DNA from: Candidatus Saccharimonadota bacterium
Lineage (GTDB): Bacteria > Pseudomonadota > Gammaproteobacteria > Enterobacterales > Enterobacteriaceae
DNA: 32,000 bases
Reading direction: 5' to 3'
Assembly: GCA_049942765.1 (NCBI GenBank)
Contig: CP188086.1
Coordinates: forward strand, 390,001-422,000
The position numbers were made by a program, and so were the translations under genes. Positions 3,522-28,243 of the stretch are shown here, piece after piece. Under the pieces are notes generated by a model, which saw only the letters and a list, made by a program, of their open reading frames with translations, was not told the DNA's origin and ran no database searches. How positions within the stretch are numbered: position 1 is the first letter of the stretch; each line of letters begins with the position of its first letter.

Positions 3522-4784
3522 ATGAATCTATTAACAGAAAAAAAAATAATAGTAGCATTAGACATAGGTAATCATACAATTTCAACTTTGATAGGCGAGA
3601 TATTAATTGATGGTAAAATTAACGTTATTGGAGTAGGTAATTGTATATCTCGTGGAATACACAATGGTACCATAAACGATTTAGAATCTATCATACAATG
3701 CACAAAGAAATCTATTAATGAAGCTGAAACTATGTCTAAGACTCATGTATATTCTGTTTATTTAGCTATTTCTAGCAAAGATGTACAGTGCCATAATGAA
3801 ATAGGAATCGCACCTATTAATAATTCAGAAGTCACAGCGTTAGATATTAAAAATGTCATCTATACAGCCAAATCGGTAAAAATTTCAAATGAACATCACA
3901 TAGTTCATGTTATTCCTCAAGAATATGAAATAGATGAACTTACTGAAATTAAAAATCCCACTGGTTTATCTGGGGTACGAATTAAAGCAAAAGTACATTT
4001 AATTACATATCATACTACTATTACAGATAGTATTATTAAATCTATAGAAAAATGCGGGATTAAAGTAAACCAACTCATTTATCCAGGATTAGCATCTAGT
4101 TTATCAATTTTAACCCAAGAAGAAAAAGAACTAGGAGTATGCTTAATAGATATTGGAGGTGGAACTTTAGATATAAGCATTTATATTGCTGGAAACTTAC
4201 AACATAGCAAAGTCATTCCTTATGCTGGAAATATTATTACTAGTGATATTGCTTATGCTTTTTCTACATCTTATATAAATGCAGAAAACATCAAAATAAA
4301 ATATGGAATGGCTAGTTCGTTTATACATGATACAACAGATATAATTGAAGTTATGAATATTTCTGGTATGTATACACAAAAATTTAATACAAATATATTA
4401 ACTGAAGTGATAGAATCAAGATGTTCAGAACTATTTTATTTAGTAAATAATGAAATTAATTCGATACAACAACAATTAAAAAAAAAAGGCAAGCAATACC
4501 AATTACTTTCTGGAATAGTTTTAACTGGTGGTACAGCTAAAATTAAATTAATAAACATTTGTGCAGAAAAAATATTTAATAAAAAAGTACGAATTGGAAT
4601 ACCTCATGATATCGAAAAAAATAACCATAATATCAATGAACCTAACTATGCTACGGTAATAGGATTACTACATTATGGAAAAAAAAGATATGATACAAAA
4701 TACAAAAATAATAACAACAATAACAATTATCTAATAAAATGTTGGAACAACGTAAACCGTTGGATAAAACAATCATTTTTATAA
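3522..4784 (+). CDS. ftsA: Cell division protein FtsA
   Basis: 420 aa, collinear with E. coli FtsA: GVRIKAKVHLITYH, LGVCLIDIGGGTLDISIY, VIPYAGNIITSDIAYAF, IVLTGGTAKI. The C-terminal amphipathic tail is NRWIKQSFL. It contains an in-frame A10 tract at 4478-4487. Confidence 0.95.
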   Translation: MNLLTEKKIIVALDIGNHTISTLIGEILIDGKINVIGVGNCISRGIHNGTINDLESIIQCTKKSINEAETMSKTHVYSVYLAISSKDVQCHNEIGIAPINNSEVTALDIKNVIYTAKSVKISNEHHIVHVIPQEYEIDELTEIKNPTGLSGVRIKAKVHLITYHTTITDSIIKSIEKCGIKVNQLIYPGLASSLSILTQEEKELGVCLIDIGGGTLDISIYIAGNLQHSKVIPYAGNIITSDIAYAFSTSYINAENIKIKYGMASSFIHDTTDIIEVMNISGMYTQKFNTNILTEVIESRCSELFYLVNNEINSIQQQLKKKGKQYQLLSGIVLTGGTAKIKLINICAEKIFNKKVRIGIPHDIEKNNHNINEPNYATVIGLLHYGKKRYDTKYKNNNNNNNYLIKCWNNVNRWIKQSFL

Positions 4785-4832: not shown

Positions 4833-5960
4833 ATGTTTGAACCTATGGAATTAAGCAACAATGCAATCATTAAAGTAATAGGAGTAGGAGGGGGAGGAGG
4901 TAATGCCGTAGAATATATGATCCGTGAAAAAATAGAAGGAGTAGAATTTTTTTCAATTAATACAGATGCTCAAGCATTGAAAAAAATAGAAGTTGCCCAA
5001 ACAATACAAATTGGTACTAATATCACTAAAGGATTAGGAGCTGGAGCTAATCCAGAAGTTGGTAAAATTTCAGCTGAAGAAGACAAAGATACATTAAGAT
5101 CAACATTAGAAGGATCTGATATGATTTTTATAGCTGCTGGTATGGGAGGGGGTACTGGAACTGGTGCAGCACCAGTAGTAGCTGAAATAGCTAGAGAACT
5201 AGGAATTCTTACTGTAGCTGTAGTTACTAAACCGTTTCATTTTGAAGGAAAAAAAAGAATGTCATGTGCTGAACACGGTTTAAATGAACTATCTAAACAT
5301 GTAGATTCCTTAATTACAATACCAAACGATAAATTACTCAAAGTACTATCTCGTGGAATTTCTTTACTAGATGCATTTGGAGCTGCCAATAACATTCTAA
5401 AAGGTGCAGTACAGGGTATTGCCGAATTAATTACTAGACCAGGTTTAATGAATGTAGATTTCGCTGATGTTAGAACAGTAATGTCTGAAATGGGATGTGC
5501 AATGATGGGATCTGGTTTATCATCTGGAGAAAATCGAGCTGAAGAAGCCGCTGCTATCGCTATTTCCAGCCCATTATTAGAAGACATTGATTTATCAGGA
5601 GCAAGAGGAGTATTAGTAAATATTACAGCTGGTTTCGATTTGAGACTAGATGAATTTGAATCAGTAGGAAATACAATACGTTCTTTTTCTTCAGATAACG
5701 CAACAGTTGTTATTGGAACATCTCTAGATCCAGAAATGAACGATACTTTACGAGTAACGGTAGTAGCCACAGGAATTTCAATTCATCAACATGAAAATTT
5801 AAATGTACTTAATGATAAAAATAAAAAAGATGTATTCATGAGTTATCGATATAAAAATATACATAACAACAACAAAAAAAAAATAGAAACGAAACATATA
5901 ACTCATAAAACAACAGAACATTTAGATATTCCTACTTTTCTAAGACATAAAAGAAACTAA
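4833..5960 (+). CDS. ftsZ: Cell division GTPase FtsZ
   Basis: [14 protein letters not shown], the tubulin signature [18 protein letters not shown], and [11 protein letters not shown]. The conserved C-terminal FtsA/ZipA-binding peptide is present as [17 protein letters not shown] Shine-Dalgarno lies 5 nt upstream. There is an in-frame A10 tract at 5874-5883. Confidence 0.97.
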
Positions 5961-6810: not shown

Positions 6811-7542
6811 ATGATTATTGGTATTCTAGGAGCAATGTACGAAGAAATTAAACCACTACATCAATTAATTGATAATATCATACAAAAAAAATATTATAAC
6901 TATATATTTTACATAGGAAATTTATTAAATATAAAAATTATATTTTTAATATCAGGTATCGGTAAAGTAGCTGCTAGTATTGCAAGTACAATATTAATTA
7001 ATAAATATCATCCAAACCTAATTATTAATATAGGTACAGCTGGAAGTATTCATCACATATTAAAAACCGGTAATATTGTTCTTGCAAATACAATTAGTTA
7101 CTATGATGTAAATATCACTAAATTCGGATATAAAATTGGCCAAATACCATCTTGTCCTCAATTTTTCTTAATAAACCAACAGCTATTACATCTAACTACT
7201 GAAACACTTAATAAAAAAAAAATTCAGTTCTTTCAAGGATTAATTGTAACTGGAGATGCATTCATACATAGTAAAAAAACAGCACAATTAATTAAGAAAA
7301 AATTTCATAATGCCATAGCTGTGGATATGGAAAGTGCTGCTATAGCACATGTATGCTTTAAATTGAATACTCCTTTATTAACTATTAAATGTATTTCAGA
7401 TTATGCCAACAACACAGGACATATTGATTTTAAAATATTTATTCATATATCTAGTCAAACTAGTTGTAATGTTCTAACGATTTTATTAAATGAATTAAAT
7501 AAAAATACTAAGATAAAACACATTTTAAAAACAAATAATTGA
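6811..7542 (+). CDS. mtn: 5'-methylthioadenosine/S-adenosylhomocysteine nucleosidase
   Basis: IIGILGAMYEEI, SGIGKVAASIASTILI, INIGTAGS, VTGDAFI and AVDMESAAIAHVC match E. coli Mtn (Pfs). The stop codon is TGA, which shows the standard genetic code is in use. Confidence 0.9.
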   Translation: MIIGILGAMYEEIKPLHQLIDNIIQKKYYNYIFYIGNLLNIKIIFLISGIGKVAASIASTILINKYHPNLIINIGTAGSIHHILKTGNIVLANTISYYDVNITKFGYKIGQIPSCPQFFLINQQLLHLTTETLNKKKIQFFQGLIVTGDAFIHSKKTAQLIKKKFHNAIAVDMESAAIAHVCFKLNTPLLTIKCISDYANNTGHIDFKIFIHISSQTSCNVLTILLNELNKNTKIKHILKTNN

Positions 7543-11146: not shown

Positions 11147-12376
11147 CTACATTATTAATAACCGTATATCTAATACATATTGATTAATAAAATGTATAAA
11201 ATTAGCAGCATCTACTCCATTAATCACACGGTGATCATAAGAAAATGATATAGGTAACATTAACCTTGGGTTAAATACCATTCCATCAAAAATCGATTGC
11301 ATGCTACATTTAGATAGACCTAAAATAGCTACCTCACTACTATTAATAATAGGAGTAAAAAAACTACCTCGAACAGTACCTAAATTAGATATAGTAAAAG
11401 TTCCTCCAGATAAATCGGGCAATGTTAATTTTCCAATCCTAGCTTTATTTGACAAATCTTGTAATTCATTAGAAATATTTAATATACTTTTATTTTGTAT
11501 ATTTTTTAATATTGGAATTAATAATCCATCTTTAGTATTAACCACTACGCCAATATTAATATCTTTTTTTAAAATAACTTGATTATTAATCATATCAATA
11601 GAACTATTAAAAATTGGAAAATATTCTAATGCCTTTACCACAAACTTTATTATAAATGGTAACAAAGTAATTTTTATATTCTTTTTTTTCATATCTAAAT
11701 TATATTTTTTTCGAAAATTATCCAAATCAGTCACATCTATTAAATCAAAATGAGTAACGTGTGGAATATTTTTCCAATTGTTAGACAAATTTTTCCCTGA
11801 TACAATTTGTATTTTAGATAAAGATAGTATTTTATTGCCTTGATTCTGTATACAAGGTTCTTTTAACTTATCATTAAATGTAATATCAGAATGTATAGAT
11901 TCCGATAAATATTTTTCAATATCTTCCTTAATAATCCTATTTTTAGGACCAGATCCTGTAATACATGACAAATTGATATTTTTTTCTCTAGCTAATTTTC
12001 TTATTAAAGGACTAGCATGTACTAATTTATCTAAAGAATCCATCTTATTGTTACATATGAAATTCTTTTCATCCTTATCTAAATTAAATATATAATTTGT
12101 ACTTTTCTTATTTACATCCATATTATTTTCAATAGATAAATCACTTTTTTCTTGAAAAAACATAATAACTGAACTAGTTTTAACTTTATCACCTACTTTA
12201 ACTATAATATTACAAACTATTCCATCACATGGTGATGGAACTTCCATCGCAGCTTTATCTCCCTCTACTATAATCAAACTTTCTTCAATTTTTACTATAT
12301 CACCTACTTTCACTAAAATATCAATTACCTCTACTTCATCTACTCCTATATCAGGTATTTTAATTTCAATTGTCAT
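11147..12376 (-). CDS. aceF: Pyruvate dehydrogenase E2 dihydrolipoamide acetyltransferase; single lipoyl domain
   Basis: There is one lipoyl domain (VEGDKAAMEVPSP). The E3-binding domain is HASPLIRKLAREKNINLSCITGSGPKNRIIKEDI. The catalytic domain has the DHRVINGVDAANF active site. The protein is 409 aa, against 630 aa with three lipoyl domains in E. coli. Confidence 0.93.
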   Translation of the reverse strand: MTIEIKIPDIGVDEVEVIDILVKVGDIVKIEESLIIVEGDKAAMEVPSPCDGIVCNIIVKVGDKVKTSSVIMFFQEKSDLSIENNMDVNKKSTNYIFNLDKDEKNFICNNKMDSLDKLVHASPLIRKLAREKNINLSCITGSGPKNRIIKEDIEKYLSESIHSDITFNDKLKEPCIQNQGNKILSLSKIQIVSGKNLSNNWKNIPHVTHFDLIDVTDLDNFRKKYNLDMKKKNIKITLLPFIIKFVVKALEYFPIFNSSIDMINNQVILKKDINIGVVVNTKDGLLIPILKNIQNKSILNISNELQDLSNKARIGKLTLPDLSGGTFTISNLGTVRGSFFTPIINSSEVAILGLSKCSMQSIFDGMVFNPRLMLPISFSYDHRVINGVDAANFIHFINQYVLDIRLLIM

Positions 12377-16596: not shown

Positions 16597-16761
16597 TACA
16601 TTTAATTCCAATAATTCTACGATATATTTAAAATAACACTAATTTTGTTATTAAAGATTTTTAAATATTAAAAAAAATCTATTAATATATAATTAATTTC
16701 ATATAATGAACAATTTCATAATATCTAATTCAATCAATACATTATTTTAATAATATTAATG

Positions 16762-16779
16762 TCATCTTAATTAAGATGA
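16762..16779. repeat. 18-bp perfect palindrome in the guaC-secA spacer
   Basis: tcatcttaattaagatga equals its own reverse complement. Confidence 0.85.
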
Positions 16780-17210
16780 TTATTAATCATAAAAGATTAT
16801 TTCAAGAATAAATATAGTTAAATTTTATTTAAAAAATCTAATATTGCATATTTTCTGTATAAATATACAATAAAATTATTCTTTAAAATAAACAATAAAA
16901 ATATGTAAAAATATACAATTAAATATTCGATAACATAAATTATTTAAAATATCAAAATGATGACTTTATTTTTTTTGTACAAATAAATATTTGTATTTTA
17001 CAAAATAACAAGCAACTATAATTATTATTTATTAGTTTTTATAAAACTCATTATCTTTATAAAAAATATTTATGTTATAAAAAAAATAATTTTATATCTA
17101 TAAATACATTATTACAAAAATAACCTTAAACTTATCACTTTCTCATAATTAATTATAATAATTAAAAAAATTAACATTTAAATAAATAATAATCATTATA
17201 TAATCGTGTG

Positions 17211-17240
17211 AATATAAATATTATAGATAATATTTATATT
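17211..17240. repeat. 30-bp palindrome (14-bp arms, 2-nt centre) in the guaC-secA spacer
   Basis: The sequence is aatataaatattat-ag-ataatatttatatt. The arms are exact reverse complements. Confidence 0.85.
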
Positions 17241-17429
17241 GTAATAGCATGATAAAAATCAAAAAATCCACTAAAAAACACATATCATAATCAGATAATA
17301 ACCATTGTTATAATTATAATTTATATAATATCTCCTACAATTTAATAAATTTTTTATATATAGAAACATAAATTACATATTTTATATAACTAAAAAAATA
17401 AAAGAAATAAAATCACTAAAAAAAAATAA

Positions 17430-20015: not shown

Positions 20016-20582
20016 AACACTTTTTCTCATAATTACTATATATCTGACTATTAAACGTCATTTTCACTAGTTTTAAATATAAATTTCATTATATTTAATA
20101 ACATATGTTGTACTTAAATATTTAATTTTTATTGAATTTAAATTTCAATTTATATTAAAAAACAAAAAATATAAAATATATAAAATTTTTATTACTAGAA
20201 TAAATATGATATTACATAAATATAATAAGATCATAAAAAAAATAACTAACAAAAACAAAAATCATTATGTATCTCCGAACTATTTTTTATTATTAAATAA
20301 ACAATATCTACTAAAAATATTTATATATATAAAAAATTTATTATTATGTTTACAACATAAAATTATAAATAATTAATATAAATTAAATAATTAAATTTAT
20401 AAAAATTAAGATCAATAATATTATTCAAAATAACTGAATATAAAAAATCAAAAAACATATCAATAATTATTTATCTCAAATAATAGTAATTGTTCTTAAA
20501 ATAAATAAATCAAAAAATATATTTATATATTATCTAATTCTAAAAATAATAAAAAATAGTTTAACTAAATAACATCTATAAA

Positions 20583-20609
20583 AAACATCATAAACATGAT
20601 AAACATCAT
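20583..20609 (-). terminator. 3 x 9-bp tandem repeat immediately 3' of leuA, forming alternative 5-bp hairpins followed by a U-run; weak terminator candidate
   Basis: The + strand reads aaacatcat-aaacatgat-aaacatcat. The - strand reads atgatgttt-atcatgttt-atgatgttt-tt. The atcat-gttt-atgat hairpin is followed by gttttt. The repeat starts 14 nt after the leuA stop. Confidence 0.3.
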
Positions 20610-20622
20610 TTTTACTACATTA

Positions 20623-22170
20623 TTAATTTTTTAAAATTTTTATTTTATCTTTTAATTCTTCTAAACAATAAATGGAATTAAATATTTTAATTAAAGCTTG
20701 TATTACAGTATTAATCATATTATTTGATATACTTGTTCCATAAAAAATACGACCAAAACATTCTATTTCAATATCAACCTGTGAAGAAGTATTTGAATTT
20801 ATTCCATTCGAATTCAAATTAAATTTTTTTAATTTAATAGGATATTTTATAATATGATTTAAAGTTGAATAGACAGCATCAATTGGATTGGTATATAACT
20901 TAAATGATTTATTGATAATTTTATTTCCACACATTAAAGAAATACTACCTTGAGAACATTTATCAAAATCAGATGTAATACTAATATTTTTTAAAACAAA
21001 ATTTTCTCTTTCTATATTATATATTTTAGAAAATGCTAATATTTCCAATTCATAATCAAATATTTGACCTTTTTGATCTGCTAAATTTAAAAATGAATTA
21101 TATAATGTATCTATATCATAATCATCATTACCATAACCCATACCAAACATACAATTTCTAATAGCAGCACGTCCTGATCTTGATGTTAAATTTAAAGAAA
21201 CTTGTTTTAACCCAACGCTTTCAGGAAAAATAATTTCATAATTACTTCTATGTTTTAATACACCATCTTGATGAATACCAGAAGAATGAGAAAAAGCATT
21301 ACTACCTACAATTGCTTTATTCATTGCAATAGATATTTTACAAATTTCACTCACTAATCGACTATTAGAATATATTTCTTTGATTTTAACATCCGTATAC
21401 ATTTTTAATAAATCTGATCTAGTATTAATAGCCATTACCACTTCTTCTAAAGCAGCATTACCAGCTCGTTCACCAATACCATTAACAGTACATTCAATTT
21501 GACGAGCTCCAGATTGAACCCCACTAATAGAATTTGCTACAGCCATACCTAAATCATCATGACAATGTACTGAAATAACTGCATCATCAATATTTGATAC
21601 TTTCGAAATCAATAATTTTATTATTTTTCCAAATTCTTCAGGAATGGTATATCCAACTGTATCTGGTATATTAATTGTAGTAGCTCCAGCTTTAATCACT
21701 TTTTCAATAATCCAACACAAATTATCAATGGAAGTTCTTCCAGCATCTTCACAAGAAAATTCAACATCATCAGTATATTTACAAGCACGTTGAACAGATT
21801 TAACAGCCATATCTATAATTTCTTCAAAACTTTTATTTAATTTATGTTCAATATGTAATCTAGATGTACCTAAAAATAAATGAATTCTGAATTTCTCAGC
21901 AAATGACATAGACTCTGCAGCAACATCTATATCTTTATTTATACAACGAGCTAAACCACATATCCGACTATTTCTTATTACTCTAGATATTTCTTTTACA
22001 GATTTAAAATCCCCAGGAGAAGATACAGGAAAACCAACTTCAATTATATCAACACCTAATTTTTCTAAAGATAATGCTATAGTTAGCTTTTCTTTTACTG
22101 TCAAACTAGATCGTAATGATTGTTCACCATCCCTCAATGTTGTATCAAAAATTATAATTCTTTCTTTCAT
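20623..22170 (-). CDS. leuA: 2-isopropylmalate synthase
   Basis: [51 protein letters not shown] and [12 protein letters not shown] match E. coli LeuA. An AGGGT Shine-Dalgarno lies 5 nt upstream of the ATG. Confidence 0.96.
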
Positions 22171-22488
22171 ATTTACCCTATTTTAATTCTATAAATTTAT
22201 AAAATACAACATTAATATATTATTCTGTATTAAAATATTTAATAACAATAATTAATTAAAACATTACAATATTCTAATTTTACTTATTTTACACTACAAA
22301 TAATTTAATAAAAACTAAATAATAAGTGTATTTTTTATTGTAAACAATGTAACCATCATATAAAACCAATGAACAATGTACACTACAAAAAAATTAAGTT
22401 TATAATTAAAATATCTACTATTATAGTTAATAACCAATAGACTACAATAAAAAAAATTCTCACTAAATTCAAATTTTTAAAATATTTC

Positions 22489-22517
22489 AGAGATTCAGTA
22501 CAAAATACTAAATCTCT
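22489..22517. other. G:C-containing hairpin in the leuD-leuA spacer (11 bp with one C/A mismatch, 5-nt loop)
   Basis: agagatt-c-agta-caaaa-tact-a-aatctct. It lies 262 nt downstream of leuD and 319 nt upstream of leuA on the - strand. Confidence 0.5.
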
Positions 22518-22778
22518 AAAAATACATAAAAATCATATATAATATAATATACAACATACATAATATAGAATATTTATAACAATATGTTTATATAACAGAT
22601 AATATAACACATGATAAAATCATAAAAATAATATTGAAAACCATATAATACATTCAATATATATTAATATATTTATGATTACACAATCATAGACAACAAA
22701 AAACCAAACATTTATTTTTATCTTTTTAATTAATTTAAAATATATATTAATTAAATTGATAAATTTATAACAATAAAT

Positions 22779-23387
22779 TTATGTTCGAATAAAAAAACTA
22801 GGTATAGATTTTTCATAATGTTCTATATCACTCTTACGTTTCATAGTTAAATCAATACTATCTAATCCATGTAATAAACAAAATTTATGAAACTCAGAAA
22901 TGAAAAATGTATATTCTTTGTTATCAATCTTTAATTTATTATGTAATAAATTAATATTACATTTAATACCAATATGTTGTGTTACTATTGAAAATATAGT
23001 ATTAATTTCTGATTCTGTTAAAGTAATGAGTAACAAATGATTATTAAAACTATTATTATAAAATATATCAGCGAAACTAATAGCTATAATAACTTTAAAT
23101 CCATAATCTTTTAACGACCATACTGCATGTTCTCTAGAAGAACCACAACCAAAATTATCACGAACTAATAAAATTGTAGCATTTTTATAACATTCATTAT
23201 TTAAAATAAAATTTTTATTAATTTTTTTACTACAACCATTTAAAAATCTCCAATTATAAAATAAATGTTTACCAAAATCTTCTTTAGTAATTTTCTGTAA
23301 AAATTGTTTAGGAATAATTACGTCAGTATCAATATTAGACATATCTAATGGTACTACAATACCATTATGTTCTTTAAACTTATCCAT
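22779..23387 (-). CDS. leuD: 3-isopropylmalate dehydratase small subunit
   Basis: HNGIVVPLDMSNIDTDVIIPKQFLQKITK, NFGCGSSREHAVWSLKDYGFKVIIA and SFADIFYNNSFNN match E. coli LeuD. Confidence 0.95.
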   Translation of the reverse strand: MDKFKEHNGIVVPLDMSNIDTDVIIPKQFLQKITKEDFGKHLFYNWRFLNGCSKKINKNFILNNECYKNATILLVRDNFGCGSSREHAVWSLKDYGFKVIIAISFADIFYNNSFNNHLLLITLTESEINTIFSIVTQHIGIKCNINLLHNKLKIDNKEYTFFISEFHKFCLLHGLDSIDLTMKRKSDIEHYEKSIPSFFIRT

Positions 23388-23395
23388 AATATTAA

Positions 23396-24808
23396 TTATT
23401 CTCTTTTTAATTTAATTTGTCTGACATCAATAAATTTTCCAGAAATTGCTGCAGCAGCTGCCATGGAAGGACTAACTAAATGTGTTAAACCACCTCTACC
23501 TTGTCGACCTTCAAAATTTCTATTACTTGTTGATGCACATCGCTCTCCAGAATTTAATTTATCATCATTCATCCCTAAACACATAGAACAACCAGGTAAT
23601 CTCCATTCAAAACCAGCATGTATAAAAATTTTATCCAACCCTTCCATTTCAGCTTGTTGTTTTACGTTCTGTGATCCTGGTACTACTATAGCTTGTACTG
23701 TAGAATGTACACGTTGATCAACAACTATAGAAGCAGCTAATCTTAAATCTTCTATTCTAGAATTGGTACAAGAACCTATAAAAACCTTATCAACTTTTAT
23801 ATCAATTAATTTCATACCAGGTTGTAATTTCATATACTCAATAGCATATTTTGCAGATTCCCTATCTGCTCCGTTAGCAAACATATCTAATGTTGGTATT
23901 CCTTCGCTAATAGAACAAACCTGTCCGGGATTAATCCCCCATGTTACTTGAGGCTCTATATTACTAATATCTATCACAATCGATTTATCATAATAAGCAT
24001 CCACATCAGAATATAAAGTTTTCCAAAATGTTATAGCTTTATACCAATTATCACCTTTAGGTGCAAAATCTTTACATTTTAAATAATTATAGGTGATTTG
24101 ATCAGGGGCTATGAGAGCAGATTTTGCACCCATTTCAATTGCCATATTACATATAGTCATTCGTTCCTCCATACTAAATCGATCAATTACAGAACCCATA
24201 AATTCAACTACATACCCTGTTCCATAAGCAATACCTAATTTTCCTATAACATATAAAATAACATCTTTTGCTGTAATACCCACACCTATCGTCCCTATTA
24301 ATTGAATCTTCATAGTATTAAAACGTCCTTGTTTTAATGTTTGTGTAGCAAATACATGTTCTACTTCAGATGTTCCAATACCAAATGATAAAGCTCCAAA
24401 TGCCCCATGAGTAGATGTATGAGAATCTCCACAAACAATAGTCATACCTGGTAATGTTAAACCTAATTCAGGTCCTATTACATGAACAATACCTTGTTTA
24501 GAACTATTTAAATCATACAAAGTAATATTAAAGTCATTACAATTATTAATTAATGCTTCCATTTGTAATTTAGCCTGCACACCTGAAGCATCTATTGATG
24601 AACTAACAGTAGATACATTATGATCCATAGTAGCAATAGTTTTATTACATTGACGAATAATTCTATTTTTTTTTCTTAATCCAGAAAATGCTTGAGGAGA
24701 AGTAACTTCATGAATAAAATGCAAATCAATATACAATAAAGGAGATTCAATTTTATTATCATATACTATATGTTGATCATATATTTTTTGATATAAAGTT
24801 TTTCCCAT
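23396..24808 (-). CDS. leuC: 3-isopropylmalate dehydratase large subunit
   Basis: [76 protein letters not shown] and [12 protein letters not shown] (the aconitase-family Fe-S ligands). Confidence 0.96.
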
Positions 24809-24810
24809 AA

Positions 24811-25914
<1,104 letters not shown>

Positions 25915-26126
25915 TTATAAAATACTATTATTTATAAAATTATTAATAAAAAAAGAATCATGCTATACAGTTTATAAATAACATATAATTTTTATTCAAA
26001 AAAAAACATATAGCTAATATAATAAAACTATACATGCTATGTTAGAACAAACAACATGAATAATTTGATAAAATCAATATCTTAATAAATTTATTAACAT
26101 AATCAATATTCATATTAATCATGTAA

Positions 26127-26893
26127 TTAATGAGGTAAAGGAAAGCAATGTGGATATCTTACATATAACAAATACAAACCATGAGCCTTAGCTGTTACAT
26201 TAAAAGACGATCGATTTCTACTTTTTAACAATGTATCCATCCATAACACACTTTTTTTTTTAAACCTACAGAAATTAATGCGCCTACTATATTTCGAACC
26301 ATATGATATAAAAAAGCATTTGCTTCTATATCTATAATGACAAAAACCTGTTTTTTAATTACTTTTAATCTCCTTATATAACGTATAGCTGTACTAGATT
26401 GACAACCTGTTGATCTAAAAGCACTAAAATCATGTTCTCCTAATAAATATTGACCACTTAAATGCATTCTATATACATCTAAATCATACCAAATATGATT
26501 TACATAATTCATAAACATTGATGGACGAACAGAATTGTTATAAATAACATATCTATATGTACGTGATATAGCACTATATCTAGCATGAAAAAACATAGGA
26601 ACCTTTACAATCCAACGAACAACAATATCTTCTGGTAAATAAGAATTAATTCCTAATAACCAGGATCTTTCTTTCCTCTCAGAAGATGTTTCAAAATGTA
26701 CAACTTGACCAAAACTATGAACACCAGCATCAGTTCTACCTGAACAAAAAACACATACTGGATGATTAGCAACTAACGAAATAGCTTTTTCCAATTCTTC
26801 CTGTACGCTGATGATATCCTTTTGTTTTTGCCATCCGCTGTAATAAAAACCATTATATTCAATACATAATGCAAACTTAATATTAACATCCAT
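26127..26893 (-). pseudogene. truA: tRNA pseudouridine(38-40) synthase TruA, interrupted by a frameshift at an A10 tract (26252-26261). The full-length frame is restored if the tract is read as A11
   Basis: The N-terminal 220 codons (ATG at 26893) match TruA: IEYNGFYYSGWQKQ, the catalytic-Asp motif GRTDAGVHSFGQVVHFET, and RTYRYVIYN. After GLKKK the genomic frame gives VCYGWIHC* (stop at 26225-26227). The neighbouring frame gives SVLWMDTLLKSRNRSSFNVTAKAHGLYLLYVRYPHCFPLPH* (stop at 26127-26129). That aligns with the E. coli TruA C-terminus ...[38 protein letters not shown]. Confidence 0.85.
26252..26261 (-). repeat. A10 homopolymer (T10 on the + strand) at the truA frameshift site
   Basis: Counted directly: the + strand reads cac-tttttttttt-aaacc. 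The coding strand reads GGT TTA AAA AAA AAA GTG. Confidence 0.95.
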
Positions 26894-27847: not shown

Positions 27848-28243
27848 CTACACTTACTGAATATAAATACTATATTTTTTATTTTTATATCTAAAAAAGT
27901 TATCTATAAATGAAACTTAATTAATGTATAATATACAACATAATTAATAATGTACATCTTAAACACCGTACAAGCAATTCTAATCTAAAAAAAAAAATAA
28001 TAAAACATTAAAAATAAATCAAAATCATAAATCAAAAAAAATATAACAATTATGATAACAACATCACATTAATTACTACAAAAATAAATGATTAATACAA
28101 TTCCTTTTGTAATATATGCTATGTTATATATAAAAAATCGTTAACCTATAAAAATAACATACACTCACTATAAATATAGTTAACAACATTTATATTTGTA
28201 TGATGAACAACATTCTAATCAATATAACAAATAATTAATCTAA

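Follow-up and report, generated by a model that had tools for sequence, protein, structure and literature searches.

In the endosymbionts Buchnera and Blochmannia, genes frameshifted at poly(A) runs and rescued by transcriptional slippage have been described (Tamas et al. 2008 PNAS; Wernegreen et al. 2010 MBE), a class that is characterized here from three later accounts (PMC3017870, PMC5009743 and bioRxiv 10.1101/2022.08.28.505559). In these accounts, slippage at poly(A) is reported to correct the frame in 12-50% of the transcripts of the frameshifted genes (PMC5009743), or the frame-corrected share is given as about 30% (PMC3017870), and in the cases studied the correction takes place at the transcript level (PMC3017870, PMC5009743). 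Bacterial runs of nine A or T are sufficient for slippage (PMC5009743). According to the same accounts, poly(A) frameshifts of endosymbionts may be conserved between species (PMC3017870; bioRxiv 10.1101/2022.08.28.505559), and at least one group curating Buchnera genomes takes its lead from Tamas et al. 2008 and annotates as functional those genes that are interrupted at A/T homopolymers (bioRxiv 10.1101/2022.08.28.505559). The genes named there include cell-wall genes, a histidine biosynthesis gene, pheA, dnaX, dnaG and pth; a literature search for truA as a slippage-rescued endosymbiont gene found no mention of it.

The gene concerned here is truA, located in a stretch of DNA of 32,000 nucleotides that is referred to below as the window. 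Judged by protein identity and gene order, the source organism is Buchnera aphidicola, a relative of the symbionts of Eriosoma aphids. Among TruA proteins, the closest, at 68% identity, belong to the Buchnera of Eriosoma grossulariae and E. lanigerum, and those of the Tetraneura Buchnera come next (60-61%); the order hpt-pcnB-dksA-truA-leuB-leuC-leuD is common to the window and the Buchnera of Eriosoma and Tetraneura. In the window, the leucine genes lie on the chromosome in a circularly permuted order, with truA, leuB, leuC, leuD, a 608-bp spacer (22171-22778) and leuA occupying 20623-26893 on the minus strand, followed by secA; this B-C-D-A order would be consistent with a circular leucine plasmid having been inserted after opening between leuA and leuB, and repeated moves of leuABCD between plasmid and chromosome have been described in a 2024 paper. 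Elsewhere in the window, aceF (11147-12376, minus strand) encodes a protein of only 409 aa whose match to the E. coli-type E2 profile covers positions 209-637, so that the N-terminal lipoyl region is reduced, and no tRNA gene and no Rfam family was found in the 32 kb.

The truA locus is laid out as follows:

26127..26893, minus strand: truA, tRNA pseudouridine38-40 synthase (E 6e-86 to 1DJ0; TIGR00071, 227 bits)
26262..26893, minus strand: upstream part in frame 0, codons 1-210 and the TT of Leu211, with the GRTDAGVH and MVRNIVG motifs
26729..26731, minus strand: GAT codon of Asp55, aligned to the Asp of E. coli GRTDAGVH and invariant in a 40-sequence alignment
26252..26261, minus strand: A10 homopolymer in Lys-Lys-Lys codons, the frameshift and proposed slippage site (from the sequence and its relatives)
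26225..26227, minus strand: premature TAA of the unshifted frame, which ends the 222-aa product
26127..26251, minus strand: downstream part in the -1 frame, 41 codons and the stop, with the last helix (218-225) and a beta-strand (240-246)

From the ATG at 26893 to the stop codon of the restored frame, truA measures 767 nt, or 3n minus 1, and the homopolymer, T10 on the plus strand and A10 on the sense strand, sits inside the codons TTA AAA AAA AAA. Past the run, the unshifted frame continues as GTG TGT TAT GGA TGG ATA CAT TGT TAA, and the zero-frame product is a protein of 222 aa ending in ...GLKKKVCYGWIHC (the truncated open reading frame comprises 229 aa if begun at an upstream TTG). Insertion of one A yields a TruA of 255 aa ending in ...GLKKKSVLWMDTLLKSRNRSSFNVTAKAHGLYLLYVRYPHCFPLPH with the stop at 26127-26129; removal of two As restores the frame likewise, minus one Lys, and a -1 ribosomal shift on the A10 results in a protein identical to the extra-A product. 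The first downstream codon, AGT, depends on the extra or re-read A. The genomic frame of 767 nt is thus broken at the A10, and no second stop or indel was found in the truA of the window beyond this lesion.

The restored protein aligns without gaps to residues 5-253 of E. coli TruA (1DJ0) and scores 227.4 bits with the equivalog model TIGR00071 (curated cut-off 142.85 bits; the TruA family corresponds to TIGR00071 and PF01416), as compared to 208 bits for the truncated product, the tail being worth 19 bits. Conservation was assessed in an alignment of 40 TruA sequences, the conserved columns being defined without the two frameshifted taxa, namely the window and the Buchnera of E. lanigerum discussed below. 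The tail read in the shifted frame retains all nine columns with a conservation of at least 90% and all 14 of those at 75% or above, on par with intact relatives, and the upstream part retains 67 of the 68 columns conserved at 90% or more. All 40 invariant columns are present in the restored protein, including D55, which from established knowledge of pseudouridine synthases we take to be the catalytic residue; the invariant residues within the tail are L223, R228, G239, L240 and Y247. In an AlphaFold model built from the same alignment (mean pLDDT 93.8), the tail has a pLDDT of 88-97 and corresponds to the last helix and the strand of TruA, and the model superimposes on the E. coli structure with a TM of 0.97 and an rmsd of 1.1 A over 252 columns, the tail covered. 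The 222-aa product would keep Asp55 and lose the last helix, the strand and all five invariant residues of the tail, and is probably inactive.

These results bear on a preliminary description of the locus, which had placed a frameshift of truA at 26252-26261 and whose coordinates and zero-frame tail were confirmed by translation. Its proposal that one extra A restores the TruA C-terminus, with a stop at 26127-26129, is borne out by the gapless alignment; the homology that it drew to the E. coli C-terminus stands as well, whereas the E. coli sequence that it quoted was incorrect, with one Ala missing. It had further noted some 40 open codons with conserved residues past the run, in a genome with spacers of near-pure A/T, and both points hold, with 41 open codons carrying 14 of 14 conserved residues and a measured spacer GC of 13.4%. 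Among stretches of 41 codons, 1.5% of those in spacers and 0.46% of those in gene off-frames are stop-free, which makes an open frame of this length a rare chance event here. The spacers (e.g. 16612-17429, 20031-20622 and 22171-22778) are also strand-asymmetric, with a plus-strand composition of A 0.50, T 0.37, C 0.095 and G 0.039.

Long homopolymers are commonly under-called by one base, and the genome might accordingly carry A11, truA being ordinary and intact and the A10 a length error of sequencing or assembly. A Logan contig (SRR33632139) with other contig ends is 100% identical to the window over 15.8 kb, A10 included, an agreement qualified by the possibility that this contig and the window assembly share source reads. 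The adjacent run SRR33632138 (Logan) yields the Buchnera of Tetraneura akinire, so the host of the window probably comes from the same survey of Eriosomatinae aphids. Against a length error, the 22 remaining genes of the window all have their full length, and four of the genes whose match to the family profile extends from one end to the other contain in-frame A10 runs (ftsA 4478-4487, ftsZ 5874-5883, mtn 7213-7222 and leuB 25339-25348), which makes a systematic homopolymer error unlikely; about twelve in-frame A9 runs are found within intact genes of the window as well, the genes with these A10 and A9 runs being essential or nutritional ones. The longest homopolymer of the window is an A11 at 27987-27997, in the dksA-pcnB spacer, and the assembler was therefore not capped at ten.

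The same codon was compared by DNA alignment in the related symbionts:

Window: TTA-A9-GTGTGTTATGG, one base short
Buchnera of E. lanigerum: TTA-A9-GTGTAGCTTGG, one base short in the same place; frame 0 stops at GTG TAG
Buchnera of E. grossulariae: A12 G AAA TCT, in frame
Buchnera of T. ulmi: A12 T GTA TCT, in frame
Buchnera of T. akinire: AAAG A8 T ATA TCT, in frame

The one-base deficit is thus found in two of the five sampled Buchnera lineages, and the alignment gap relative to the three in-frame relatives falls inside the A run, which, to go by this alignment, is ancestral to the group formed by the window, Eriosoma and Tetraneura Buchnera. An alignment with related symbionts had been suggested in the preliminary description, and it revealed the same A10 frameshift in the Buchnera of E. 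lanigerum (OZ060395.1), where A10+GTGT occurs at the identical truA codon. The two genes share the deficit and the synteny (hpt-pcnB-dksA-truA-leuBCD) and differ in lineage, with 68% identity in TruA and 74% in the flanking proteins. In E. lanigerum, truA (L003 3001-3773) measures 773 nt, its downstream frame is open with 13 of 14 conserved residues, and no second lesion was found besides the A10; the frame-0 stop follows the run after one codon, as compared to eight in the window. The deposited protein CAL4320713.1 has 257 aa and reads ...GLKKKSVAWMKT..., which, given the 773-nt span, means that the depositors translated across the shift. In effect, the public E. lanigerum record already handles this exact site as read-through.

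This comparison adds to the case against a length error. The A10 of E. lanigerum comes from the genome of an unrelated project whose curators retained the frameshift, in-frame A12 runs are present at the site in the E. grossulariae and T. ulmi genomes, which are accessions of the same series, and no in-frame allele is on record for the window species or the E. lanigerum Buchnera. An exact look-up of the in-frame alleles (A11 and A8) and of truncated forms, alternative starts included, returned only the two known sequences for the two species, and metagenome scans with species-specific flanks and free tract length gave no match to either. A scan of reference genomes with the restored protein, by 8-mer peptides and hence strict, recovered no relatives in GTDB r232, which does not hold the window genome; with the degenerate DNA pattern TATMANATGGTTMGNAATATWGT, no Buchnera was among the matches listed for the reference genomes. 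Taken together, we regard a length error at the A10 as quite improbable.

If the lesion is real, truA may be decaying. In E. coli, TruA is dispensable, as hisT mutants are viable, and the loss of truA therefore remains compatible with viability. Homopolymer indels are the usual first lesion of Buchnera gene decay, as cited in PMC3017870, and the gene could have been inactivated recently and independently in the window and E. lanigerum lineages without functionally relevant rescue, its tail being intact for want of time. Such a history needs two of the three lineages to be caught at the same site in the same brief stage at which the lesion is the only one, neither truA carrying a second. The residues of the tail that are conserved in the family are kept, 14 of 14 in the window and 13 of 14 in E. 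lanigerum, and dN/dS between these two is 0.37 in the tail (0.23 in the upstream part), which likewise argues against decay. On the other hand, tail dN/dS is 0.99 relative to E. grossulariae, a value near 1 for which no more than about 24 synonymous sites were available; the pairwise range of 0.37-0.99 over 41 codons, with about 25 such sites, is too noisy, and the sites are too close to saturation (dS about 0.8), for this measure to carry the decision. The tail of the window is also mildly more diverged than those of its relatives, with an identity to T. akinire of 0.415, where the tails of E. lanigerum and E. grossulariae reach 0.50 and 0.585, respectively, and its ratio of tail to body (C/N) BLOSUM scores is 0.70, the family having a mean of 0.81, a standard deviation of 0.07 and a minimum of 0.61. 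This divergence hints at relaxed constraint at variable positions, yet it lies inside the family range.

The age that decay would allow was approached by a neutral, AT-biased simulation with an open frame and retention of 12 conserved residues as the criterion. The probability of such an outcome is 0.30 at 0.05 hits per site, 0.085 at 0.1 and about 0.005 at 0.2, so a neutrally evolving pseudogene would need to be young relative to the divergence of the lineages, in both of them; for a lesion younger than about 0.02-0.05 hits per site, an intact tail is expected with a probability of 0.3-0.6. Recent pseudogenisation is favored in one further respect, as the frameshifted lineages are probably not sisters, which leaves room for two events, but on the whole we consider it rather unlikely.

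The placement of the lineages was examined with the flanking proteins (about 1,390 sites), in which the identity is 74.0% between the window and E. lanigerum, 74.4% between the window and E. grossulariae and 77.8% between E. lanigerum and E. grossulariae. Quartet-informative sites divide 18:13:13, and the neighbor-joining bootstrap for the pair of E. lanigerum and E. grossulariae is 89% with amino acids and 57% with nucleotides (codon positions 1+2). These values make a sister relationship of the two frameshifted lineages improbable, in which case the frameshifts may represent two independent, possibly recent events at a hypermutable run. Either the frameshift is older than all three lineages and was repaired in E. 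grossulariae, or the change from A11 to A10 occurred twice; parsimony at the local codon (AGT/AGT/AAG/AAT/AAT) requires about five events for a shared origin as for a parallel one. As a tentative proposal, which we hold to be possible but doubtful, the A10 frameshift would be ancient, pre-dating the split of the window and Eriosoma lineages, repaired only in the Buchnera of E. grossulariae and followed by purifying selection on the tail ever since. If this is true, low-dose, slippage-dependent expression of TruA would be a stable and possibly selected state in Buchnera, and truA would provide the Buchnera counterpart of the "ancient frameshifts maintained by selection" of Blochmannia.

The reading that we favor, and hold to be probable, is that truA carries a real genomic frameshift from A11 to A10 that is partly rescued by transcriptional slippage. 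The preliminary description had likewise proposed a poly(A) frameshift of the slippage-rescued kind, and the conserved tail, the E. lanigerum twin and the intact neighboring genes favor it. In the proposed mechanism, a one-base deletion would have shortened the poly(A) run of truA from A11 to A10, and faithful decoding would give the 222-aa protein, probably inactive. RNA polymerase would slip on the ten As and add one A (or drop two), and a minority of the mRNAs would thereby regain the frame and supply full-length TruA at a lowered dose. We propose that the lesion is tolerated, and the gene otherwise kept intact, because a fraction of the expression products regains the frame, and that the reduced dose may suffice because TruA is a non-essential modification enzyme. 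We infer that slippage takes place at this run, that active TruA arises from it and that the tail is preserved by selection on that product.

The same protein could be produced during translation. In the zero frame the run presents a heptamer of the X XXY YYZ type, A AAA AAA, on which -1 re-reading gives exactly the A11 protein (...KKKSVLW...), and ribosomal shifting on A runs is known (PMC5009743). However, the 70 nt downstream fold no better than shuffled sequences (z +0.14 in the window and +0.72 in E. lanigerum), by which downstream RNA structure was ruled out as a frameshift stimulator, and the upstream 20 nt differ between the lineages and are devoid of a GGAG-like core (...TCTGTAGGTTTA in the window, ...GAAATTGGATTA in E. 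lanigerum). With neither a downstream structure nor a conserved Shine-Dalgarno-like element, a -1 shift would be unprogrammed at best. In addition, the endosymbiont cases treated in PMC3017870 and PMC5009743 are corrected at the transcript level, and ribosomal frameshifting as the main route to full-length TruA seems to us very unlikely.

The restored frame also offers potential starts just past the run, GTG at 26249 and ATG at 26240, and truA might be a split gene in which the 222-aa N-terminal fragment and a separately initiated C-terminal peptide of 37-40 aa assemble into an active enzyme. Because GTG or ATG overlaps or abuts the frame-0 stop in both lineages, termination-reinitiation is conceivable. 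Neither start, however, is preceded by a Shine-Dalgarno sequence, no 40-aa protein of this kind is on record, there is no evidence of TruA tolerating fragmentation, and the Met is not an adaptation, as the same Met is present in intact relatives (WM/WI). The absence of a ribosome-binding site and the ancestral Met led to the rejection of reinitiation, and a split gene is the least credible of the explanations considered, with hardly any probability left to it.

With truA, a housekeeping gene of tRNA modification joins those endosymbiont genes that are retained despite a frameshift at poly(A), and the occurrence of the same lesion in two Buchnera lineages with about 74% protein identity provides a test pair for the duration of slippage-dependent genes. 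Automatic annotation would call truA a pseudogene and thereby distort comparisons of gene content between Buchnera genomes; the Logan gene call for truA is the truncated 229-aa open reading frame. Should the polymerase slip in truA, a share of the transcripts of ftsA, ftsZ, mtn and leuB, with their in-frame A10 runs, would also be spoiled.

Several known systems resemble this locus in part. E. coli dnaX (A AAA AAG) has, like truA, an A-rich slippery heptamer on which a -1 shift alters the C-terminus; however, it is equipped with an upstream Shine-Dalgarno-like element and a downstream hairpin, none of which was found in truA, and is an intact gene with two functional products, whereas in truA the shift would mend a lesion. 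In homopolymer phase variation of pathogens, run length sets the frame and the two-way mutation rate is high, as in truA, but phase variation consists of heritable changes of DNA length in surface and restriction genes of free-living populations, while truA is a housekeeping tRNA-modification gene of a clonal, bottlenecked symbiont in which no length polymorphism was observed. A close match is provided by the slippage-rescued frameshifts of Buchnera and Blochmannia introduced above, for which transcript correction has been reported; for the truA of the window it is proposed. Like truA, these are cases of a single indel in a sense A run of about ten, in an extremely AT-rich insect endosymbiont, with the gene otherwise intact, the downstream frame conserved and the same frameshift present in more than one species. 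With its single indel in a sense A run of at least nine, its conserved downstream frame and a lesion shared across species, the truA of the window agrees with the poly(A) frameshifts known from endosymbionts in all features that can be tested in silico.
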